Source of the DNA: Betaproteobacteria bacterium
Lineage (GTDB): Bacteria > Pseudomonadota > Gammaproteobacteria > Burkholderiales > Ferrovaceae
DNA length: 64,000 nt
Assembly (NCBI GenBank): GCA_028868905.1
Contig: JAGWTQ010000001.1
Location: forward strand, 684 to 64,683
Reading direction: 5' to 3'
Shown here in pieces: positions 48,711-61,032 of the stretch (position 1 is the stretch's first letter; each line of letters starts with the position of its first letter). The translations under genes were made by a program, and so were the position numbers. Under the pieces are notes generated by a model. That model made no database searches. It was not told the DNA's origin and saw nothing but the letters and a program-made list of their open reading frames with translations.

Positions 48711-49145
48711 ATGCAAACTATCCTGGTCCTGCACGGACCCAACCTGAATCTCCTTGGCATGCGCGAGCCCGGCATCTACGGGGCGACGACGCTCGACGAG
48801 ATCGACCAGCGTCTGCGTGAATGCGGTTCAGGGCGGGGCGCTTCGGTCACCTCGTTCCAGAGCAACTGGGAAGGCGCCCTGATCGACCGCATCCATGCAG
48901 CACGCCAGGATGGCACCGAAGGCCTGATCGTCAATCCAGGTGGGCTGACCCATACCAGCGTGTCCCTGCGGGACGCCCTGGCTGCGGCTGCCCTGCCTTT
49001 TATCGAAGTACATCTGTCGAATGTCTATGCCCGCGAACCGTTCCGCCAGGTTTCGTACCTTTCCCCGATCGCGCTCGGCGTGATCAGCGGCCTGGGTGCG
49101 CGCGGCTATGAATTGGCACTCGACTACCTGCTTGACAAGGGTTAA
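48711..49145 (+). CDS. aroQ: Type II 3-dehydroquinate dehydratase
   Basis: [48 protein letters not shown]. Confidence 0.93.
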
Positions 49146-49148
49146 GTC

Positions 49149-49610
49149 ATGGATTTGAGAAAACTTAAAAAACTCATCGACCTGGTGGAAGAGTCCGGCA
49201 TTGCCGAACTGGAAATCACCGAGGGCGAGGAAAAGGTCCGGATTGCCAAGGCGGGAAGCGGTCATGCCTATGTGACGGCCCATCCTGGCCATTACGCATT
49301 GCCGCCTCAGGCCGCGGCTGCTCCCGTGGCACCCGTGGTCAGCGCGGAAGCCCCGCCCGCCGAAGAAGAGGGGCATGTGGTGAAGTCGCCCATGGTCGGC
49401 ACGTTCTACCGTTCCCCCTCTCCCGGCTCCCCGCCGTTCGTGGAACTGGGACAAAGCATCACCGAAGGGCAGACGCTGTGCATCATTGAAGCCATGAAGC
49501 TGCTCAACGAAATCGAGTCCGACGTGTCCGGCACCGTCAAACGGATTCTGGTGGAAAACGGCCAACCCATCGAGTACGGCCAGCCCCTTTTCATCATCGC
49601 TTCCGCTTAA
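49149..49610 (+). CDS. accB: Acetyl-CoA carboxylase biotin carboxyl carrier protein
   Basis: Ala/Pro linker and the biotinylation motif [12 protein letters not shown]. Confidence 0.95.
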
Positions 49611-49625
49611 GCGAACGATTCCGCC

Positions 49626-50984
49626 ATGTTTGAAAAAATCCTGATCGCCAACCGCGGCGAAATCGCCCTGCGGGTCCTGCGTGCCTGCCGCGAACTGGGC
49701 ATCAAAACGGTGGCTGTGCATTCCGAAGCCGATGCCGATGCCAAGTACGTGGTTCTGGCCGATGAATCGGTCTGTATCGGCCCCCCGGCATCCCAGAACA
49801 GCTATCTCAACATTCCGGCCATCATTTCCGCCGCCGAAGTGACTGGCGCCGAAGCCATCCACCCCGGTTACGGATTCCTGTCCGAAAACGCAGACTTTGC
49901 CGAACGGGTTGAAAACAGCGGATTCGTATTCATCGGCCCGCGCGCTGAAACCATCCGCCTCATGGGCGACAAAATCAGCGCCAAATCGACCATGAAAGCG
50001 GCCGGCGTTCCGGTGGTGCCCGGCTCCGAAGGCCAACTGCCACAAGACCCCAAGGACCTCAAGAAACTCGCGGAAAGCATCGGCTACCCGGTGCTGATCA
50101 AAGCGGCAGCCGGCGGCGGCGGACGCGGCATGCGCGTGGTCGAACGCGAGGAAGACCTGCTGGGCTTCCTGGACCTGACCCGCAGCGAAGCCCGCAACGC
50201 CTTTGGCAACGACACCGTGTACATGGAAAAGTACCTGGGGCAGCCGCGCCACATCGAGATCCAGGTCCTTTCCGACGAACACGGCAATGCGGTCTATCTG
50301 GGCGAGCGGGACTGCTCCATGCAGCGCCGTCATCAGAAAATCATCGAAGAAGCACCGGCCCCCGGCATTTCCGACAAGCTCCGGCAGAAAATCGGGGAAA
50401 GCTGCGTGGCGGCCTGCAAGCGCATCAAATACCGGGGAGCCGGCACTTTCGAATTCCTGTACGAAAACGGGGAGTTCTACTTCATTGAAATGAACACCCG
50501 CGTGCAGGTGGAACACCCGGTCACGGAACTCATTACCGGCATCGACATCGTCCAGGAGCAGATCCGCATTGCAGCTGGCGAAAAGCTGTCCTTCCGCCAG
50601 AAGGACATCGTCCTGCGCGGGCATGCGTTGGAATGCCGGATCAATGCGGAAGACCCGTTCACTTTTGCCCCTTCCCCCGGTCGCATCACGCAGTACCATG
50701 CGCCTGGCGGCCCCGGAACGCGCGTCGATTCCCACATTTACCACAATTACTTCGTGCCCCCTTACTACGACTCGCTGATTGCCAAGGTGCTCACCCATGG
50801 CGCCACGCGCGACCAGGCGATTGCCCGCATGCGCATCGCACTGTCGGAAATGGTGGTGGAAGGCATCAAGACCAACATTCCCCTGCACCAGCAGTTGCTT
50901 CAGGACAAGGCTTTCGTGGCGGGTGCAACCAGCATTCACTACCTTGAAGAAAAGCTCGCACGGGACAAGGCCAAGTCGTCCTGA
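49626..50984 (+). CDS. accC: Acetyl-CoA carboxylase biotin carboxylase subunit
   Basis: [41 protein letters not shown]. Confidence 0.97.
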
Positions 50985-55322: not shown

Positions 55323-55937
55323 CTACTTGGCGGCAGCCACCATGTAATCCACCGCTGCCTTGACATCCGCATCGGACAAGGAGGGATTGCCTCCCTTGGC
55401 CGGCATGGCATTTTTTCCATGCAAGGCGCTGCGGTAGAGGGCATCCATGCCTTGGGCAATCCGGGGGGCCCAGGCCGCCTTGTCGCCAAAACGCGGGGCT
55501 CCCATGGCGCCGATGCTGTGGCAGCCGGTGCACAGCGAATGGTAGGTGCTTTCGCCAGCCTTTGAAGCTGCCGGCGCAGCCGCCGCCACCGTTGCAGGCG
55601 CTGCCGGCCGGGCTGCCTCAGAAACGGGCGATGCCGGGGCTGCCGCGCCGGATTGTGCCGGCACTGCTGCCGCCACCGTCGGCACCGGGGCCGTGCGGGG
55701 AGGGGCTGCGGCTATCGACACTTCGCCCACAGGCTTGATGCGATCTTCCACCGCCCGGGCCGTTGCCGCATCCTGTGGCGCTGCTGCCGCCTCGTGCTTC
55801 GTGGCCAGCATGCTGCGCAAGCCCGCAATCACAGCAATCGTTGCGACCAGAAACAGCAGCCATTTGCTGACCGATGCCTTGTTACCCGTGTTATTGGTTG
55901 TCATGGACGGTTCTCTACCAGAATTTGGATGGGACAT
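55323..55937 (-). CDS. Membrane-anchored monohaem cytochrome c5-type protein with long Ala/Pro linker
   Basis: TM helix (WLLFLVATIAVIAGL), a roughly 100-aa Ala/Pro-rich spacer, and CTGCHSIGAMGAPRFGD...AMPAKGG (CXXCH plus Met ligand). Start is either ATG 55937 (possible leaderless start, TATAAT 7 nt upstream) or ATG 55904. Confidence 0.8.
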   Translation of the reverse strand: MSHPNSGREPSMTTNNTGNKASVSKWLLFLVATIAVIAGLRSMLATKHEAAAAPQDAATARAVEDRIKPVGEVSIAAAPPRTAPVPTVAAAVPAQSGAAAPASPVSEAARPAAPATVAAAAPAASKAGESTYHSLCTGCHSIGAMGAPRFGDKAAWAPRIAQGMDALYRSALHGKNAMPAKGGNPSLSDADVKAAVDYMVAAAK

Positions 55938-56025: not shown

Positions 56026-56102
56026 GCGCCCGTAGCTCAGTTGGATAGAGTGTTGGTTTCCGAAGCCAAAGGTCACAGGTTCGATTCCTGTCGGGCGCGC
56101 CA
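56026..56102 (+). tRNA. tRNA-Arg (anticodon CCG)
   Basis: Hand-folded cloverleaf: acceptor GCGCCCG/CGGGCGC, D arm GCTC-AGTTGGATA-GAGT, anticodon arm TTGGT-TTCCGAA-GCCAA, T arm ACAGG-TTCGATT-CCTGT, discriminator G, encoded CCA. Confidence 0.9.
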
Positions 56103-56144: not shown

Positions 56145-57179
56145 TCAGTTCGTGTTCAGCACCGCGCCAACGGGCTGGCGCCCCCTGACACGGTAGAAGT
56201 AATAACCGGTTGCCAGAAAAGACGCGAACACCATCGCAGCAAACACCAGGCTGCTGAGAGCCAGTTGCATCCCGCCTGAAATGATGTGCCCTGACGTACA
56301 GCCACCGGCCGTGCGCGCACCGAACAACAGAAAAAACCCTCCGACGAACGCCCAGAAAAAACGCTTTCCGGATGAACTGCCGTGGTAGCGGACCCACAAA
56401 TCGGGCACGCTGGAAAGCTGGAAACGGCGTCCGGCAAGGGCAAAGGCAAACCCGGCCAGCAAGGCGCCGAAAAGGAACAACAGTTCCCAGGAACCTGCCG
56501 ACTCAATTTTCTGCCAGTAGGCTGCCCCTTCCATGCCAGTCAACACCATGGCTGCGAACGGAAATGCGGACGAAGCACCGATGGGGCGCCCCGTTGCCCA
56601 CGAGGTCGTAAGCAGGGCATTGAGCAGCGCCAAACCAACCGCCGCGTAGAGCCAGCGCCAACCCTGTCGCTGCAGTCGCTGCAAAAAGAGCGCAATGCCC
56701 ATGAACAGCAGGGCAAGCGCGGTGCTGATCACGCCATAAAGATCCGGGTTGTGAACCAGATGACGCACGGAAATTTTTCCCAGATCGGGCCCGAGCAGCG
56801 GCGCGAGCCAAGGATAAACCCCTGCGAAAACGAGCGACCCGCAGAGTCCGCCTATCACGCCGACAAAGGCGTCCAGACGCCCCTGACCGAGGGAAATCAC
56901 CACGGTTCCGGGACAGTAGCCCAAGAGGGCCATGCCCACACCAAAAATAAGCCCCCCGGCAATCACGCCCGTCAGCAGAAAGGGCTTGACGTGGTAGTCC
57001 ACCCAGCCCAGCTGCATTTCCGCCTGGAACAGGAGAATGCCCAGACCGATGGTGAAGGCGATGGTCTTGGCGATGCTGAAATCCTTCAGCACCGCCATGC
57101 CTGCAATCGTGTCAAAGCAGTTCAGGCGCGCGAACTGAAGGATGGCCCCGAACAGGAATCCCCACAAGACCAGCTCCAT
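56145..57179 (-). CDS. YeeE/YedE-family inner-membrane sulfur-compound (thiosulfate-type) transporter, two-domain form
   Basis: 344 aa, polytopic, with internal duplication and conserved Cys motifs (LLGYCPGT, RTAGGCTSGH). GGGAGG SD upstream. Confidence 0.85.
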   Translation of the reverse strand: MELVLWGFLFGAILQFARLNCFDTIAGMAVLKDFSIAKTIAFTIGLGILLFQAEMQLGWVDYHVKPFLLTGVIAGGLIFGVGMALLGYCPGTVVISLGQGRLDAFVGVIGGLCGSLVFAGVYPWLAPLLGPDLGKISVRHLVHNPDLYGVISTALALLFMGIALFLQRLQRQGWRWLYAAVGLALLNALLTTSWATGRPIGASSAFPFAAMVLTGMEGAAYWQKIESAGSWELLFLFGALLAGFAFALAGRRFQLSSVPDLWVRYHGSSSGKRFFWAFVGGFFLLFGARTAGGCTSGHIISGGMQLALSSLVFAAMVFASFLATGYYFYRVRGRQPVGAVLNTN

Positions 57180-57194
57180 GTTGCACCTCCCGAA

Positions 57195-57707
57195 TCAGTT
57201 CGTGGGATCGGCCACGAAATGCTTGTGAGCCTGGAGATAAGCCACTTCGGCAAACCCTGAGGGCACGATATCGGCTTCGGAAACGTTGTACAGCTTGTGG
57301 AAATCAAGGCCCTGTTCACGCAGCGTGTTGTCACAAACGGCGAACTTGACTCCTTTCGCGCGCAACGCATCCAGCTGCTTCTGAACCTTTTCTTCAGGGT
57401 TCTTGAGCAATGTGATGCCTTTGGCATAGATCACCACAACCACATGCATGTCGCCCTTCCAGGTTTCCACAGCCTTCAGGCCGTTGGCGATGTTGCGCAG
57501 TTTCTTGCCCTGAACGCCTTTGTCATCGGTGGTCAAGGGCACCACGATGTTCATCTGTCCGAATGACTCATGATGAATCTTTGGCTGGACATATTCGCTT
57601 TTTGCTTCGGCAGCCGTCGGAGCGTCCGCCGCAAAAATGCTGTGGGACATCATCACGGCGATTGCCGCGGCAGAAGTCATCAATGCCAGTTTTTGTCGAA
57701 GTGCCAT
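57195..57707 (-). CDS. Exported DsrE/DsrF-like (COG1416-type) protein
   Basis: Sec signal (AAAIAVMMSHSIFA-AD), then MNIVVPL...HVVVVIYAKGITLL...GVKFAVCDNTL, resembling the DsrE-like fold with its conserved Cys. GAGGAGAA SD upstream of ATG 57707. Confidence 0.6.
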   Translation of the reverse strand: MALRQKLALMTSAAAIAVMMSHSIFAADAPTAAEAKSEYVQPKIHHESFGQMNIVVPLTTDDKGVQGKKLRNIANGLKAVETWKGDMHVVVVIYAKGITLLKNPEEKVQKQLDALRAKGVKFAVCDNTLREQGLDFHKLYNVSEADIVPSGFAEVAYLQAHKHFVADPTN

Positions 57708-57756: not shown

Positions 57757-58791
57757 CTACTTGGCCTTGCTTCCGGAATAAGACTTGAATCCGTAGCGTT
57801 TGAAAATGTCCTGGGCCTCCGGCGAAGTCAGGAACTCGACCCACTGCTTAGCCGCTTCGGGATGCGGAGCCCCCTTGACCACTGCGGCCCCATAGGTGCC
57901 CGTGGCATTCTGCTCGTCAGGAATGGCAACATGGCTGATCGGATTTCCGATCATCTCCTGAAACGCCGCTTCCGACTGCCAAGTCACGCCGGCCTGCGCC
58001 TTTCCCTGCATCAGGTACATGGGCGACTGGCGATGATGGATGTGGGTGAGGATGGTTTCCCCGTTCTTTACCTTGGTTTCGTACACCGCACGCACCAAGG
58101 CTTCGCCGCCCGCCTTGGCCAGACTCTCCTTGATTTGTCGGCCCACGCCCTCAAAGGCTGGATTGGGCATGACGAGTCGAACACCCGGCTTGCCCAGATC
58201 GTTCAGGCTGGTGATGCGGGCTGGATTGCCTTTGGGAACCATGATGGTGAGGGTATTGGTGGCATAGGGCACGGCCGTCCCCGTGGCCAGCCCCTCCTTG
58301 ATGGTGCTTTCCACCCGTCGCAACCCGCCTGCATACACATCGGCATGGACGGTCCAGGTCATATTGCCGACCGTGATCGTGCCGCCGTTGCGCAACTGCT
58401 CAACCAGCAGGCCGGGCGGCAGCGTTTCGTAGTAGATCTTTCCCTTCAGTGCGGGATGTGCTTGCTCAAACGCATGCACCAGCGGCGCCATCACGAAAAA
58501 GTAATTGCCTCCGACAAAGATGGACAATTCCGAGTTGACGGGATTTCCATGCAAATCCGGCAGGTTATCCACTTCCGGCACCGTAAATTCCAGCCCCCTC
58601 GATTGAACGGGGTTATTTGCACCGTTGCTCCAGGGCGGGTAAACACCCGGGGGCTGACTGGCTGAGCCCGAAGTCCCGGCTGCCGCGGTTCCTGCCAGGC
58701 ATTGAGCCATCAGGCCCACCAGCAAACCAGTCTTGAGGGCCATCCGCCGGGTGCCGGGCGCCGCCTTGATCCAACGTGAAATTGAAACCAT
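57757..58791 (-). CDS. Orphan periplasmic solute-binding protein (ModA/sulfate-binding-like PBP2 fold) with twin-arginine-type signal
   Basis: T-R-R-M-A-L-K followed by a mildly hydrophobic h-region and AAA. The mature part resembles SBP_bac_11/ModA-like proteins. No permease or ATPase genes are adjacent. Start is ATG 58791 (GGAG 6 nt upstream) or 58803. Confidence 0.7.
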   Translation of the reverse strand: MVSISRWIKAAPGTRRMALKTGLLVGLMAQCLAGTAAAGTSGSASQPPGVYPPWSNGANNPVQSRGLEFTVPEVDNLPDLHGNPVNSELSIFVGGNYFFVMAPLVHAFEQAHPALKGKIYYETLPPGLLVEQLRNGGTITVGNMTWTVHADVYAGGLRRVESTIKEGLATGTAVPYATNTLTIMVPKGNPARITSLNDLGKPGVRLVMPNPAFEGVGRQIKESLAKAGGEALVRAVYETKVKNGETILTHIHHRQSPMYLMQGKAQAGVTWQSEAAFQEMIGNPISHVAIPDEQNATGTYGAAVVKGAPHPEAAKQWVEFLTSPEAQDIFKRYGFKSYSGSKAK

Positions 58792-58818
58792 GCGTGACTC
58801 CATTTCCTAAAAGATTAA

Positions 58819-60852
58819 TCAGTACCGGGCATCAGCCGGCTTGCCGCCTTTGGGCCAGTCTTTCTTCTTGTCCACAAAATCCGGGCGAGGCTTGTGCGTG
58901 AAGTACTGCGCCACATCCACTGCTTCCTGGTCTGTCAGGCCACCCTGGCCCAGCGGGAATGCCGGGCTGGCCGATATGGGCATGTTGTGCTTGACGAACG
59001 CGGCCGCCGTGTAAGTGCGTGCCATGCCGGCGCCGATGTTGAAAGACTGCTTGCCCCACAAGGGCGGAAACACGAAGCTGCCATCCTTGCGCTGCAGCCC
59101 TTCGCCATTGTCGCCGTGGCACAAGGCACACTGTCCCTCATACACCTTCTTGCCATTGGCTGCGTCGGGAACGATGTTGTGATCCATTTTCCCGACCCCG
59201 CGCCCCGGTATCGGCTGGCCTGCCTTGACGTCCACTTTCATGGTGTCCATGAAAGCCACCATGGCCAGCATTTCCCTGGAACCCTTGTCCAGCACCTTCC
59301 CGTTCATGGAACGCCGCATGCAGCCGTTCAGGCGATCCGTGATGTCGATGATTCTTCCCGAACGGGGACGGTAAGTGGGAAACAGCGCTGCCACGCCAGG
59401 GTAGGGGGCTGCATGCCCCACCGTTCCGCCATTCAGGTGACAGCTCGTGCATTCGAGAACGTCGCCCACGTGTTGCGGCATCAGCTCCTTGCTGTCCATC
59501 ATCAGCCGCATGCCGTAAACCAGTTGTTCCGCGTTCGGCATGGCCAGAAAGTCTGCAAAGCGGGGCAGTGCCGATTTCGACATTTCCTCAGGCCTGACAC
59601 CGACCGCTTCGCGTACCTTCCTGACGTCTGCTGCAGTCACGGGCAGACCGTGATTCCCCCATTGGGCACGTACGAACGAAATGATCTCGGCCAATTCCTG
59701 GTCGTTCAGGCGGCCGTAGCCCGGCATGTAAAACCCGTGCCGGGCGCCTGCCGTTTCAGGCGATTTCCAGCCGCTCAGGACCACATGGATGACTGAAGTG
59801 GGATCTTTCGATTGCACGGACGAATTGTTGGCAAGGGGCGGAAAAAATTTCTCCACGCCGCGCCCGTCGTACTGGTGACAGGTCGAACAGAACTGCACGT
59901 ATCCAAGTCCGCCGCGGGTTTTGTACAAATCGCTTTCATGCACCCTGGCCACTTCGTGGGGCATGACGGCACGGGTTTCTTCATTGGAGGACAAGGAACT
60001 CAGGTATTCCCCGATGGCTGCCAGGTCGCTGTCAGTAAAATGCTGGGAACTGTGATTGACGACTTCCGTCATGCTTCCATAGGCCGTGGCATAGCCGTTG
60101 TGGCCGGTTTTCAGGAACTGGGCGAAGGCCTCGGCCGGCCACCCGTTGTGCAAACTGACGGCATGCCAGTTGTCCACGGTGGATCCGGTCAGAAAACTCA
60201 CCCCGCTTTCGCCCTGGTCGCTTTGCGCCTTCTCCTGCATGCCGATGCCGCGGGGCGAATGACAGGCACCGCAGTGTCCCAGGCTCTGAACGATGTAGGC
60301 GCCACGATTCCATTGTGGTGATTTGCCGGCGTCGGGCATGAAGGGAGTGTCTTTCAGGAAGGCGATATTCCAGAACTTGAGGCCAAATCGCATGCTGAAG
60401 GGCCACTGCATGTGATTTTCCTTGTTGGCCTGCACCACCGGCTGCACCCCTTTCATCAGGTAGGCGTAAAGGGCGCGCATGTCCTGCGGGCTGATTTTGG
60501 CAAAGGAGGGATAGGGCATGACGGGATACAGGTTTTCCCCGTCGGCTGCCACGCCCTGGCGCATGACGCGGTCGAATGCTTCAAACGAATAACCACCAAT
60601 GCCGGTACGGGCATCGGGCGTGATGTTGGTGGAATGGATCGTTCCGAACGGCGTGTCCATTTCCAACCCGCCAGCCAATGGCTTCCCGCCTTTGGCGGTA
60701 TGGCAGGCCGCACAGTCGCCCAGATGCGCAAGATATTCTCCACGCTTGACCTGGTCATCACCCGGTTCGCTGGCGGCAGCATGAAGTGCTGGCGCAAAAG
60801 CAGACAGAAGCAGTGCAGCCGTTGCGGCCGCTGCCGTATATTCCCCCCTCAC
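58819..60852 (-). CDS. Periplasmic pentahaem c-type cytochrome: N-terminal trihaem (alcohol/gluconate-dehydrogenase cytochrome subunit-like) module fused to a C-terminal TsdA-like dihaem module
   Basis: GTG start with GGGGGAGA SD and a signal peptide. Five CXXCH motifs at C47, C194, C322, C468 and C575. The C-terminal 240 aa carry TsdA-like blocks (FPTYRPRSGR, RLNGCMRRSMNG, FPPLWGKQSFNIGAGM, AAAFVKHNMP, LTDQEAVDVAQYF). Confidence 0.85.
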   Translation of the reverse strand: MRGEYTAAAATAALLLSAFAPALHAAASEPGDDQVKRGEYLAHLGDCAACHTAKGGKPLAGGLEMDTPFGTIHSTNITPDARTGIGGYSFEAFDRVMRQGVAADGENLYPVMPYPSFAKISPQDMRALYAYLMKGVQPVVQANKENHMQWPFSMRFGLKFWNIAFLKDTPFMPDAGKSPQWNRGAYIVQSLGHCGACHSPRGIGMQEKAQSDQGESGVSFLTGSTVDNWHAVSLHNGWPAEAFAQFLKTGHNGYATAYGSMTEVVNHSSQHFTDSDLAAIGEYLSSLSSNEETRAVMPHEVARVHESDLYKTRGGLGYVQFCSTCHQYDGRGVEKFFPPLANNSSVQSKDPTSVIHVVLSGWKSPETAGARHGFYMPGYGRLNDQELAEIISFVRAQWGNHGLPVTAADVRKVREAVGVRPEEMSKSALPRFADFLAMPNAEQLVYGMRLMMDSKELMPQHVGDVLECTSCHLNGGTVGHAAPYPGVAALFPTYRPRSGRIIDITDRLNGCMRRSMNGKVLDKGSREMLAMVAFMDTMKVDVKAGQPIPGRGVGKMDHNIVPDAANGKKVYEGQCALCHGDNGEGLQRKDGSFVFPPLWGKQSFNIGAGMARTYTAAAFVKHNMPISASPAFPLGQGGLTDQEAVDVAQYFTHKPRPDFVDKKKDWPKGGKPADARY

Positions 60853-60880
60853 GATCTCCCCCTGCGGTATATAACTTTAT

Positions 60881-60896
60881 AGAATAAGCATATTCT
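60881..60896. promoter_or_regulatory. Inverted repeat in the AT-rich region upstream of the cytochrome operon (candidate operator)
   Basis: AGAATA-AGCA-TATTCT. It sits about 15 nt upstream of a TATATA/TTATAT -10-like element on the minus strand. Confidence 0.3.
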
Positions 60897-61032
60897 TTAA
60901 ATAAATATCACATTTTGCCGAAGGATACATCACTAAATGTAAGTACCCCTCAGAACGTGCCACAGCGCGCCGGATTGCGGCACACTACCGGGACATGACC
61001 CCAGCCCCTGCAGCCGCCGACGTTCAACGCAC

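Follow-up and report, generated by a model that had tools for sequence, protein, structure and literature searches.

The window (the whole 64,000-nucleotide stretch of DNA that was analysed) encodes a pentahaem cytochrome c in which an AdhB-type trihaem module is fused to a TsdA module, and our analysis confirmed that this fusion is real. On balance we favour, by a small degree, the view that the protein is a single-polypeptide, bidirectional TsdA enzyme wired to a quinone-reactive trihaem module. The open reading frame was intact and encoded 677 amino acids, with a GTG start codon and a Shine-Dalgarno sequence, GGGGGAG, 5 nt upstream. Five CXXCH motifs begin at residues 47, 194, 322, 468 and 575, exactly the positions given in the first-pass annotation, while the chance expectation from the protein's own Cys and His content was 0.0066. 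The annotation's assignment of two domains, a trihaem alcohol-dehydrogenase type and a TsdA type, was also upheld. Residues 12-415 matched the trihaem subunit of membrane-bound ADH (8gy2_B, E = 3.4e-100), and residues 441-663 matched Allochromatium vinosum TsdA (4wq7, E = 5e-47). The features of the gene are as follows.

58819..60852, minus strand: whole fusion gene, 677-aa pentahaem cytochrome c (AdhB-type trihaem module plus TsdA module)
60772..60852, minus strand: Sec-type signal peptide, about residues 1-27, ending ...APALHA/AA, read from the sequence and without a lipobox Cys
59599..60762, minus strand: trihaem module, residues 31-418, a homologue of the cytochrome subunits found in membrane-bound ADH, GDH, FDH, ALDH and GADH
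60700..60714, minus strand: haem 1 motif CAACH, C47-H51, with C47 and C50 invariant
60355..60405, minus strand: conserved aromatic/hydrophobic segment WPFSMRFGLKFWNIAFL, W150-L166, with a counterpart in AdhB
60259..60273, minus strand: haem 2 motif CGACH, C194-H198, invariant
59875..59889, minus strand: haem 3 motif CSTCH, C322-H326, in the domain that adjoins the TsdA module
59533..59598, minus strand: inter-module linker, residues 419-440, VRPEEMSKSALPRFADFLAMPN, conserved at some positions
58822..59532, minus strand: TsdA module, residues 441-677, from the 4wq7 match, PF21342 and Foldseek
59437..59451, minus strand: haem 4 motif CTSCH, C468-H472, counterpart of the catalytic haem 1 of TsdA
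59320..59322, minus strand: C511, aligned with the haem-ligating/catalytic Cys of TsdA
59116..59130, minus strand: haem 5 motif CALCH, C575-H579, counterpart of the electron-transfer haem 2 of TsdA
58981..58992, minus strand: K621-H-N623-M624, haem-2 distal site by alignment to TsdA

Conservation was examined in 121 full-length homologues with 57-91% identity. The Cys residues of all five CXXCH motifs were invariant, as were four of the five motif His residues; the remaining one, H51, was at least 90% conserved. The protein contains 11 Cys residues in total, of which ten lie within the CXXCH motifs and the other is C511. This residue was also invariant across the homologues, together with R497, R507, S515, M624 and the presumed Met ligands of the trihaem module (M112, M261 and M376). 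The AlphaFold2 model of the 677 residues, which was built on the 121 homologues and contains no haems, had a pLDDT of 83.1 and a pTM of 0.83. The pLDDT was about 65 at linker residues 421-430 and then rose to 95. Within the linker, L436 was invariant, and F427, P430 and R431 were at least 90% conserved. The pTM value and the conserved linker residues suggested that the two modules are held in a fixed assembly. The signal peptide was the sole stretch with a Kyte-Doolittle mean above 1.4, and pLDDT was low there. The protein is predicted to be exported to the periplasm.

The fusion had been described as unusual, but the database survey showed that it is not rare. Counted as full-length homologues, the architecture comprised more than 120 clusters at 90% identity. 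At least 44 species-representative genomes from the Alpha-, Beta- and Gammaproteobacteria carried it, as did one Nitrospirae MAG, with carriers including Pseudomonas, Azospira, Thauera, Cupriavidus, Xanthobacter and Gallionella-like bacteria. The first-pass annotation had stated that its idea would fail if the architecture proved common and already characterised; the first half of this applies, since the architecture is common, but the second does not, as we found no published characterisation of the five-haem fusion in the literature searched. Shorter relatives (P0123 and P0124) carried one or two cytochrome c domains ahead of TsdA. In a Rhodocyclaceae MAG (L051), a trihaem gene and a tsdA gene were adjacent and unfused, the trihaem reading frame ending in its own stop codon and the tsdA reading frame having its own signal peptide. 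The TsdA of this MAG was 59% identical to the TsdA module of the window and carried the same C-terminal signature. The adjacency of the two separate genes points to a functional partnership of the two modules. The family offers a clean natural example of a catalytic cytochrome that swaps its electron-transfer modules, its partner being either TsdB or between one and three domains of the AdhB type.

The TsdA module

Alignments and structural comparison strongly indicated that the C-terminal module is a genuine TsdA. Its identity to A. vinosum TsdA was about 36-38%, and the AlphaFold2 model superimposed on TsdA 4v2k in Foldseek with a TM-score of 0.84. Residues 441-663 also matched the TsdA half of Marichromatium purpuratum TsdBA (5lo9, E = 2e-32), and the SoxA/TsdA cytochrome c domain PF21342 exceeded its cut-off of 27 bits with a score of 39.8. 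As had been proposed, C511 occupied the place of the haem-1 Cys ligand: it paired with the Cys of RIGDCFERS in A. vinosum TsdA (Cys123 of the precursor, Cys96 of the mature protein), the sixth ligand of the catalytic haem, which is Cys138 in Campylobacter jejuni. The residues R497, R507 and S515 aligned with Arg109, Arg119 and Ser127 of TsdA. Among the substrate-binding residues of TsdA, Arg119 is invariant and Arg109 is either Arg or Lys, while Ser127 is invariant in TsdA and absent from SoxA (PMC4423706).

The alignment also placed K621-H-N623-M624 at the haem-2 distal site, in agreement with the first-pass annotation. M624 aligned with Met209 of A. vinosum and Met255 of C. jejuni, and N623 fell at the position of Lys208 and Asn254, respectively. 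K621 aligned with C. jejuni Lys252; both it and N623 were at least 90% conserved. The segment paired with K-H-K208-M209 of the A. vinosum enzyme. Its K-x-N-M motif is of the C. jejuni type. The annotation had stated correctly that Asn stands before the Met ligand in C. jejuni TsdA, where Asn254 precedes Met255 (PMC5146829). The best-scoring PDB sequence for the module was the K208N variant, 4wqc. The fusion protein shares with the A. vinosum and C. jejuni enzymes the dihaem fold, an aligned Cys for the His/Cys haem 1 and a Met-ligated haem 2. It differs from A. vinosum TsdA in having Asn in place of the ligand-switching Lys208, and from TsdA in general by a 420-residue trihaem module ahead on the same polypeptide and by a clade-specific C-terminal tail, DWPKGGKPxDARY.

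In M. purpuratum TsdBA, as in the fusion protein, TsdA lies C-terminal to a c-type cytochrome unit. However, the partner in TsdBA is the dihaem TsdB, which passes electrons to soluble acceptors, whereas the partner here is of the trihaem AdhB type. The TsdB half of 5lo9 gave no significant alignment with the N-terminal module, only a marginal match to its second domain, and the structural match of 5lo9 to the model was partial (TM-score 0.52-0.55 relative to the target). We rejected a TsdBA-type fusion in view of the three haems of the N-terminal module and its match to subunits of the AdhB type.

The trihaem module

The match of residues 12-415 extended to the trihaem subunits of FAD-GDH (8hdd_B, E = 1.9e-98), FDH (7w2j_C, E = 3.7e-72) and ALDH (8gy3_A, E = 1.2e-54). 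The AlphaFold2 model superimposed on 8gy2_B in Foldseek with a TM-score of 0.80 relative to the target, at 39% identity. Like subunit II of ADH, GADH, FDH, FAD-GDH and ALDH, the module consists of three cytochrome c domains of class I, and its haems are His/Met-ligated. The haem-3 domain was similar to c552 and to the cytochrome domain of haem-Cu nitrite reductase. Unlike in these dehydrogenases, the catalytic partner is in cis and is itself a cytochrome. Neither in the window nor in the other fusion loci did we find a gene for a PQQ, FAD or Mo catalytic subunit, or for a small subunit, beside the fusion gene. As no such separate catalytic gene accompanies it, the N-terminal module is a homologue of subunit II rather than a subunit II proper. 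The closest stand-alone relatives, identified with tblastn, were 45-51% identical and sat behind genes for gluconate 2-dehydrogenase (Gluconate_2-dh3 plus GMC) or for Mo/2Fe-2S dehydrogenases. In such membrane-bound dehydrogenases, ubiquinone is reduced by the trihaem subunit II (PMC9171043).

Hydropathy analysis revealed no transmembrane helix or hydrophobic C-terminal tail in the fusion protein, and the nearest stand-alone relatives likewise had neither. In contrast, the Gluconobacter FDH and ADH subunits carry a C-terminal hydrophobic tail. The W150-L166 segment is a possible membrane-contact element. Among the 121 sequences, P151, R155 and G157 were invariant, and F152, W161, N162 and F165 were at least 90% conserved. 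Its helical hydrophobic moment was 0.25, so the segment is weakly amphipathic. In the alignment, the equivalent AdhB segment, WPLSMRWPLGMWRAMFV, was missing from the shorter AdhB chain 9x0q_B (PDB 9x0q).

Operon and gene contexts

The fusion gene is the first of a four-gene operon, which was conserved in two other genomes (L001 and L084). The features around the fusion gene are as follows.

60853..61032, no strand assigned: divergent intergenic region, AT-rich, with the palindrome AGAATA-N4-TATTCT followed by GGGGGAG before the GTG
57757..58803, minus strand: operon gene 2, orphan periplasmic oxyanion-binding protein (SBP_bac_11)
57195..57707, minus strand: operon gene 3, periplasmic DsrE-like protein (DsrE fold, signal peptide; Pfam DsrE, E = 3e-8; 1l1s match)
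56145..57179, minus strand: operon gene 4, YeeE/YedE-type (Sulf_transp) membrane protein (PF04143, E = 1.8e-31)

The divergent intergenic region is presumably the promoter/operator, and no sigma-70 consensus was found in it. Gene 2 follows the fusion gene after 15 bp. Its product was distant to sulfate-, thiosulfate- and molybdate-binding proteins, and it is an orthologue (64-67% identity) of sbp in the tsd-sbp-doxDA cluster of Acidithiobacillus. The start of gene 3 was set at the ATG at 57707, and alignment of its product with three homologues revealed an invariant Cys in GV(K/R)F..C.N. The gene 4 protein was related to the thiosulfate transporter TsuA, with an NCBIfam TsuA score of 79.9 bits, below the cut-off. 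The window comes from an uncultured betaproteobacterium close to acid-tolerant Gallionella/Sulfuriferula relatives, and we read its operon as a thiosulfate-handling module, most likely working in the oxidative direction. A gene for a membrane-anchored monohaem cytochrome c lies near the operon at 55323..55937. An oppositely oriented tRNA-Arg stands between the two, and the syntenic locus L084 had no counterpart of this cytochrome gene.

In six genomes (L002, L003, L034, L024, L030 and L037), the gene order was tsd, sbp and fusion. The tsd of these loci is of the AFE_0042 type (384 bits with NCBIfam NF052225, whose cut-off is 300). In Acidithiobacillus, tsd-sbp is followed by doxDA, which encodes a thiosulfate:quinone oxidoreductase (PMC6335251, PMC2754497). 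Between the fusion loci and the Acidithiobacillus orthologues, tsd was 58% and sbp 64% identical, and tblastn with Acidithiobacillus DoxDA found no doxDA in the fusion loci or the window. In these six genomes, the fusion occupies the place after tsd-sbp that DoxDA (Acidianus, Acidithiobacillus AFE_0044) holds, and the two may share the net reaction from thiosulfate to tetrathionate with a quinone acceptor. However, DoxDA, an integral membrane protein, carries no haem c, and the fusion protein is an exported pentahaem cytochrome with no kinship to it in sequence or fold. We rejected the fusion protein as a DoxDA homologue, as it had no DoxD or DoxA Pfam match; the relation proposed is only one of working alike. 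No tsd gene was present in the operons of the window, L001 or L084, or anywhere in the 64-kb window, and in most carriers (Pseudomonas and others) tsd was not near the fusion.

A TtrS-like histidine kinase and a FixJ/TtrR-like regulator adjoined the fusion in six loci (L005, L006, L009, L025, L028 and L039), and such a pair lay about 6 kb upstream in L086. The kinase was full length and scored 327 bits with NF040750, below the TtrS equivalog cut-off of 750. A role in tetrathionate respiration may be common to the fusion and to the Ttr (TtrABC) and octahaem tetrathionate reductases, although TtrABC is a molybdoenzyme and Otr an octahaem protein, both unrelated to the fusion enzyme. A canonical tsdB-tsdA pair, a second tsdA or a gene of TsdBA length (558 aa) lay directly downstream in L086, L009 and L023, in loci of Azospira type, Zoogloea and Paenirhodobacter. 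The earlier proposal that the protein does not use TsdB was therefore only partly right, these loci being the exception. The retention of tsdB-tsdA next to the fusion in Azospira-type loci suggested that the two systems are not redundant. A SoxB-like gene followed the fusion in L037. In most genomes, the fusion gene stood alone among unrelated neighbours, and a sulfur context was limited to a minority of loci.

Proposed electron transfer to quinone and its alternatives

From these features we infer catalysis, membrane docking, quinone reactivity and direction of the fusion enzyme as follows. The pentahaem enzyme would be exported to the periplasm by the Sec pathway. R497, R507 and S515 would hold thiosulfate for conjugation to C511 at haem 4, which has His/Cys ligation, and two thiosulfates would yield tetrathionate, or the reverse. 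Electrons may pass via the His/Met haem 5, with M624 preceded by the C. jejuni-type Asn, to the N-terminal module with its three His/Met haems. This module would sit against the inner membrane on its periplasmic side and pass electrons to and from the quinone pool, giving a thiosulfate:quinone or quinol:tetrathionate oxidoreductase overall. The fused TsdA would then fill the role that the PQQ, FAD or Mo subunit has in ADH, GADH or ALDH. In denitrifying relatives with adjacent TtrS/TtrR-like sensors, tetrathionate reduction is the more likely direction.

The link to quinone, put forward in the first-pass annotation as a self-contained wire, is suggested indirectly by the unfused trihaem and tsdA genes of L051, by the nearest stand-alone trihaem relatives, which belong to ubiquinone-reducing dehydrogenases, and, by analogy, by the DoxDA position of the fusion in the tsd-sbp cassettes. 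Ubiquinone has a potential of about +100 mV. For the tetrathionate/thiosulfate couple, a value of +198 mV is given (PMC9562282). Electron flow from quinol to tetrathionate would thus be downhill. Under standard conditions, thiosulfate oxidation with ubiquinone would run against a difference of about 100 mV. It would depend on a substrate/product ratio that favours it and on a pool in the oxidised state. Features that speak against quinone wiring are the missing transmembrane helix or tail, the weak amphipathicity of W150-L166, and the one- and two-domain variants, which fit a simple relay.

Alternatively, the trihaem module may be a soluble relay, functionally a longer TsdB, that makes no contact with quinone. 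Its partners would be soluble or membrane-anchored c-type cytochromes, HiPIP or cbb3/aa3 oxidases, and in the reverse direction the bc1 complex. We consider this rather unlikely, although the known TsdBA fusion works in this manner and 5lo9 partially matches the model. The hydropathy profile and the shorter variants agree with such a relay, and the haem-3 domain is similar to soluble c552 and to the domain through which electrons enter haem-Cu nitrite reductase. Cytochrome c acceptors would also be thermodynamically easier for thiosulfate oxidation at the +198 mV couple, and the membrane-anchored cytochrome encoded at 55323..55937 is close by. However, that gene is split off by the tRNA-Arg and absent from L084, and Azospira-type loci retain a separate tsdB-tsdA beside the fusion. 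The membrane-bound dehydrogenases that possess such a trihaem subunit act as ubiquinone oxidoreductases (PMC9171043), the similarity of the module to them spans its full length, and the DoxDA position favours quinones.

The conserved tsd-sbp-fusion order in six genomes could also mean that the pentahaem protein is mainly an electron acceptor for another periplasmic sulfur enzyme, the candidate being the cofactor-less AFE_0042-type thiosulfate dehydrogenase, with the TsdA module as a docking or entry domain. This is very unlikely, since the window and most carriers have no tsd nearby, nor do the operons of L001 and L084, and the invariance of every TsdA catalytic residue speaks for a catalytic role of the module itself. 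We give still less credence to a SoxA-like C-terminal module that places thiosulfate onto a carrier-protein Cys or has an unrelated haem-thiolate function. PF21342 spans SoxA and TsdA, weak SoxA matches were obtained (NCBIfam TIGR04484, 47 bits; 1h31_A, E = 7e-5), and the SoxB-like gene of L037 would fit. However, 47 bits is far from the TIGR04484 cut-off of 110, the TsdA match is better than the SoxA match by 40 orders of magnitude, S515 corresponds to the TsdA-specific Ser127 (PMC4423706), and the operon of the window contains no soxYZ or soxX.

Under the preferred reading of a quinone-wired TsdA, we tentatively suggest a more specific scenario. TsdA may have captured the quinone-reactive subunit of sugar/alcohol dehydrogenases, and the product might replace DoxDA as a haem-only thiosulfate:quinone oxidoreductase in the tsd-sbp cassettes of acid-tolerant Betaproteobacteria, where it would be a second, non-homologous answer to the same reaction. 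In reverse, under TtrS/TtrR-like control, it might serve as a bc1-independent quinol:tetrathionate reductase in denitrifiers (Azospira, Thauera, Zoogloea and Rhodoferax).

TsdA enzymes pass their electrons to soluble partners, namely TsdB, HiPIP or cytochrome c. To our knowledge, thiosulfate has no established path to the quinone pool other than DoxDA, an unrelated membrane protein. If its trihaem module is quinone-reactive, as in ADH- and GADH-type enzymes, the widespread fusion would be a new class of thiosulfate:quinone or quinol:tetrathionate oxidoreductase. It would suggest a stand-in for DoxDA in the tsd-sbp cassettes and possibly an electron acceptor of the cofactor-less AFE_0042-type enzyme. 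The scoring of thiosulfate oxidation and tetrathionate respiration in genomes and metagenomes would change, with Pseudomonas, Cupriavidus, Azospira, Thauera, Xanthobacter and acid-mine Betaproteobacteria among the groups affected. The size and solubility of the protein should allow its expression with a ccm system and hence a direct test. Some members are labelled "thiosulfate dehydrogenase" by JGI; otherwise the fusion protein is annotated only as "c-type cytochrome".

Architecture and active site of the pentahaem protein

The gene at 58819..60852 (-) is an uninterrupted open reading frame encoding 677 aa from a GTG start, which is preceded by GGGGGAG and, further upstream, by an AT-rich stretch. 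The protein opens with a Sec-type signal, MRGEYTAAAATAALLLSAFAPALHA/AA, which has no lipobox and forms its sole strongly hydrophobic stretch. CXXCH motifs start at residues 47, 194, 322, 468 and 575, exactly the positions (C47, C194, C322, C468 and C575) in the first-pass annotation; the protein's own Cys and His content would give 0.0066 such motifs by chance, and five were observed. Ten of the 11 Cys residues lie within these motifs, and the 11th is C511. By sequence, the product is a periplasmic pentahaem protein.

A phmmer search of the PDB divided the protein cleanly at residues 12-415 and 441-663. The first segment matched the trihaem subunits of alcohol dehydrogenase (8gy2_B, E 3.4e-100), FAD-glucose dehydrogenase (8hdd_B, E 1.9e-98), fructose dehydrogenase (7w2j_C, E 3.7e-72) and aldehyde dehydrogenase (8gy3_A, E 1.2e-54). 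Judged by sequence, the N-terminal half is homologous over the full length to trihaem subunit II, the AdhB-type cytochrome c of membrane-bound dehydrogenases. No separate catalytic subunit is encoded beside it in the window or the fusion loci, and it is a module rather than a strict subunit II. The second segment gave E values of about 5e-47 with the A. vinosum TsdA structures 4wq7 and 4v2k and of 2e-32 with the TsdA portion of 5lo9, the TsdBA fusion from M. purpuratum.

The Pfam SoxA/TsdA domain (PF21342) scored 39.8 bits, above its gathering score of 27, whereas the NCBIfam SoxA model reached 47 bits, far under its cut-off of 110; the C-terminal module is therefore TsdA-like rather than SoxA-like. 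Residue-level alignment, read with the TsdA residue roles described by Grabarczyk et al. (PMC4423706) and Kurth et al. (PMC5146829), placed C511 opposite the haem-ligating, catalytic Cys123 (Cys96 in mature numbering) of A. vinosum TsdA, as had been proposed from the sequence for the haem-1 ligand. R497 and R507 paired with Arg109 and the invariant Arg119, S515 with the TsdA-specific Ser127, and G609 and R612 with Gly221 and Arg224. The haem-2 site, earlier read as K621-H-N-M624, also aligned: M624 paired with the strictly conserved haem-2 Met, N623 stood where A. vinosum has Lys208 and C. jejuni has Asn254, and K621 paired with C. jejuni Lys252. The top-scoring PDB sequence was the K208N variant 4wqc, in agreement with N623. 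By every sequence criterion tested, the protein belongs to the TsdA family. A SoxA-like function for the C-terminal module is very unlikely, given the score of the SoxA model and the retention of Ser127 as S515.

An AlphaFold2 model built from a 14-sequence alignment (pLDDT 50.6, pTM 0.37) was discarded. The model built from 121 homologues had a pLDDT of 83.1 and a pTM of 0.83; its N-terminal half superposed on 8gy2_B (TM 0.80 relative to target) and its C-terminal half on TsdA 4v2k (TM 0.84). TsdBA 5lo9 gave only a partial match (TM 0.52-0.55 relative to target, rmsd about 9.5 Å); the pentahaem protein does not qualify as a TsdBA fusion. In the inter-module linker, L436 was invariant and F427, P430 and R431 were at least 90% conserved among the 121 sequences. 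Together, the high pTM value and the conservation within the linker suggest that the two modules form a fixed assembly, and not two beads on a string. Motifs, PDB and Pfam matches, residue alignment and AlphaFold2 superpositions thus bore out in every particular the architecture that the first-pass annotation had described.

Distribution of the fusion and its relatives

Full-length homologues formed at least 120 clusters at 90% identity in a protein search over 5.8 billion sequences (661-704 aa, 57-91% identity, 95-100% coverage of the window protein), all with PF21342 and cytochrome c domains. The sources included Azospira oryzae PS, Rhodoferax, Sulfuriferula, Fluviibacter, Denitratisoma and mine-drainage metagenomes, and several homologues bear the JGI name 'thiosulfate dehydrogenase'. 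We also scanned one genome per GTDB species and kept 80 loci among the matches listed, at least about 44 of which held the complete fusion. The carriers included Pseudomonas fragi, P. putida, P. rubra, Zoogloea, Pandoraea, Paraburkholderia, Cupriavidus basilensis, Ralstonia, Massilia, Burkholderia, Thauera, Xanthobacter, Rhodopseudomonas, Roseiarcus, Ca. Gallionella acididurans and one Nitrospirae MAG. The closest genome among the matches listed was a MAG (locus L001) with 94% identity. The fusion, which had been called unusual, is common instead. Our literature search for a TsdA-trihaem or pentahaem fusion found no description (a prior mention is possible), and the fusion appears to be uncharacterised. 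The interpretation in the first-pass annotation is partly supported.

Both halves were conserved as a unit across three proteobacterial classes. Invariant in the 121 sequences were the Cys residues of all five CXXCH motifs, C511, R497, R507, S515, M624 and the presumed Met ligands M112, M261 and M376. The CXXCH His was invariant in four of the five motifs, the remaining one (H51) being at least 90% conserved, as were N623 and K621.

A second census drew on a protein library clustered at 50% identity and counted 195 clusters of the TsdA family (E <=1e-30). Only one or two of these, such as that represented by P0122, contained the pentahaem form, which therefore constitutes one coherent clade; its nearest stand-alone TsdA relatives showed 48-55% identity. 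The TsdA module clearly joins many different fusion partners. Besides the three AdhB-like cytochrome c domains in P0122, it is fused to one in P0123 and to two in P0124, and further partners were TsdB, a di-haem peroxidase (CCP/MauG), a TauE sulfite-exporter, a sulfatase and a SoxB-like phosphoesterase. Clusters P0137, P0144, P0148, P0174, P0217 and P0233 stand for the other partners, and some of all these fusions may be gene-calling artefacts. P0121, which looks like TsdA joined to a protoglobin-MCP protein, is placed outside the pentahaem clade and is probably such an artefact or an unrelated fusion.

The two modules also occurred unfused. In a Rhodocyclaceae MAG (L051:7953-10194), an AdhB-type trihaem cytochrome of 439 aa with its own stop codon is followed by tsdA as a separate adjacent gene, which overlaps it by 35 nt and has its own signal peptide. 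This TsdA shares 59% identity with the TsdA module of the window protein and ends in the C-terminal DWPKGGKPKDARY tail of the fusion clade. As Rosetta-stone evidence, the unfused pair supports a functional partnership between the two modules like that of TsdB and TsdA.

Gene neighbourhoods

In the window, the fusion gene is the first of four tightly spaced genes on the minus strand, with gaps of 15, 7 and 15 bp.

Operon of the fusion gene and adjoining features in the window
58819..60852 (-), fusion gene, operon gene 1
57757..58803 (-), orphan SBP_bac_11 oxyanion-binding protein (SBP), distantly akin to sulfate-, thiosulfate- and molybdate-binding proteins
57195..57707 (-), DsrE-fold protein; signal peptide present, Cys of GV(K/R)F..C.N invariant
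56145..57179 (-), YeeE/Sulf_transp membrane protein, operon gene 4
56026..56102 (+), tRNA-Arg(CCG), marking the end of the four-gene unit
55323..55937 (-), monohaem cytochrome c of 204 aa, cytochrome cy/c552-like, with an N-terminal membrane anchor and a long Ala/Pro-rich linker

The same four genes were found in L001 and in L084 (72% identity), and the flanking order apaH-acyltransferase-pfkB-tpx-gcvH-prmA is common to all three. No ABC permease is encoded with the SBP_bac_11 protein in the window. The DsrE-fold protein is presumably periplasmic, judging from its signal peptide; to our knowledge, the characterised DsrE/TusD proteins are cytoplasmic. Its Cys motif resembles the ACHN Cys motif of the AFE_0042-type thiosulfate dehydrogenase (TSD), a cofactor-less enzyme. 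A diverged TSD was not established as its identity: BLASTP aligned only 41 residues surrounding the conserved Cys (E 0.004), and the hhalign probability against the TSD profile was a weak 15%. The monohaem cytochrome gene, which sits between the tRNA and apaH, was rejected as an operon member because the opposite-strand tRNA-Arg separates it and because it is missing from the syntenic L084, being present in L001.

The promoter scan found no sigma-70 consensus upstream of the fusion gene. A palindrome, AGAATA-TGCT-TATTCT, lies at 60880-60915 in the AT-rich region just 5' of the ribosome-binding site and is a possible candidate operator; no regulator gene adjoins it or the fusion gene in the window. 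The G+C content was 0.575-0.594 over 56-64 kb vs about 0.60-0.66 elsewhere in the window. From this drop and the abutting tRNA-Arg(CCG), the sulfur operon region may have been gained horizontally. L084 has no tRNA at the operon end. The remainder of the window holds housekeeping genes (MetH, AcrB, Ppc, SufB and others). A 703-aa frame at 48828-50939 (-), with no Pfam match, overlaps a 452-aa frame at 49626..50984 (+) and is probably a spurious high-GC antisense ORF.

Outside loci of the window type, the fusion gene was usually solitary among unrelated genes. Six loci had the order tsd - sbp - fusion, where tsd encodes an AFE_0042-type, Tat-exported, cofactor-less TSD (NCBIfam NF052225, 384 bits vs a cut-off of 300) and sbp is the orthologue of the window's SBP gene.

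Loci with the tsd-sbp-fusion cassette
L002:5915-10016, Ca. Gallionella acididurans, divergent lysR upstream
L003:5896-10022, divergent lysR upstream
L034:6006-9947, divergent lysR upstream
L024:5643-9959
L030:3443-7335
L037:6103-10040, SoxB-like gene after the fusion
For comparison with these six: L081:4164-7146

The Acidithiobacillus orthologues (58% identity for tsd, 64% for sbp) are followed by doxDA, for the thiosulfate:quinone oxidoreductase, in the cluster described in PMC6335251 and PMC2754497. There was no doxDA in any fusion locus or in the window. Since doxDA follows the orthologous tsd-sbp in Acidithiobacillus, the pentahaem gene holds the place of the quinone-reducing enzyme in the reference cassette. 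The pentahaem protein is unrelated to DoxDA but may work like it.

A TtrS-like histidine kinase adjoins the fusion in Rhodoferax (L005, L006), Zoogloea (L009), Acidovorax (L025), Pelomonas (L028) and Thauera (L039:11292-13178), accompanied by a FixJ/TtrR-like regulator. The kinase has a periplasmic Phosphonate-bd domain together with HisKA and HATPase domains, and its best family was TtrS (NF040750, 327 bits over the full length, under the 750-bit equivalog cut-off). In the Azospira-type L086, a TtrS/TtrR-like pair lies about 6 kb from the fusion (L086:1-1086). These pairs, in several denitrifying Betaproteobacteria, hint at control by tetrathionate or thiosulfate. Directly downstream of the fusion are a canonical dihaem cytochrome and a stand-alone tsdA in L086 (9294-11018), a second tsdA in Zoogloea (L009:10645-11709) and a TsdBA-length 558-aa gene in Paenirhodobacter (L023:10209-11885), so these hosts keep two TsdA systems side by side. 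The replacement at the DoxDA position and the TtrS/TtrR association are of interest to sulfur metabolism and do not overturn its current understanding.

Proposed electron path and expected direction of the reaction

We propose that the His/Cys-ligated haem 4 would be the site of thiosulfate oxidation or tetrathionate reduction, via an S-thiosulfonate intermediate on C511, and that electrons would pass through haem 5 and then haems 3, 2 and 1 to the membrane quinone pool. Such a quinone-linked wire without TsdB had been suggested in the first-pass annotation; gene context has strengthened this proposal. According to a review (PMC9171043), membrane-bound dehydrogenases bearing trihaem subunits are ubiquinone oxidoreductases, and in ADH subunit II is assigned ubiquinone reduction. 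Genes for gluconate-2-dehydrogenase or a Mo/2Fe-2S dehydrogenase precede those of the nearest stand-alone trihaem homologues (45-51% identity). Both points argue for a quinone step, as does the DoxDA position after tsd-sbp. The aromatic segment W150-L166 is conserved but only weakly amphipathic, and alignment showed the matching segment to be missing from the shorter AdhB chain in PDB 9x0q; it could hypothetically be a membrane-contact element.

The main alternative is that the trihaem module is a soluble, TsdB-like relay to c-type cytochromes or oxidases, with the same enzymology. Thermodynamics favour such a relay, variants with one or two fused cytochrome c domains exist, and the fusion is without any membrane anchor. 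The nearest stand-alone trihaem subunits likewise have no hydrophobic C-terminal anchor that a fused TsdA might have displaced. We consider a soluble relay possible but rather unlikely. The cassette loci also make the pentahaem protein a candidate electron acceptor for the AFE_0042-type TSD, an enzyme that in vitro reduced neither ubiquinone nor cytochrome c. Against this, tsd is absent from the window and the catalytic residues of the TsdA module do not vary among the homologues; such a role, which we hold to be improbable, would at most be an additional one.

The textbook potential of ubiquinone is near +100 mV. The tetrathionate/thiosulfate couple is put at +198 mV in PMC9562282. On these values, electron transfer from quinol to tetrathionate is downhill and the oxidative direction needs help from mass action. 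The Asn ahead of the haem-2 Met is the C. jejuni-type arrangement; C. jejuni TsdA is biased to tetrathionate reduction, and mutagenesis showed that the relation between this residue and the bias is not simple (PMC5146829). We expect a bidirectional enzyme whose physiological direction is set by the host. In the window's organism, oxidation is more likely, considering the sulfur-oxidiser-type cassettes of its relatives and the YeeE, DsrE and SBP partners. In the denitrifiers with TtrS/TtrR-like regulators, reduction is more likely.
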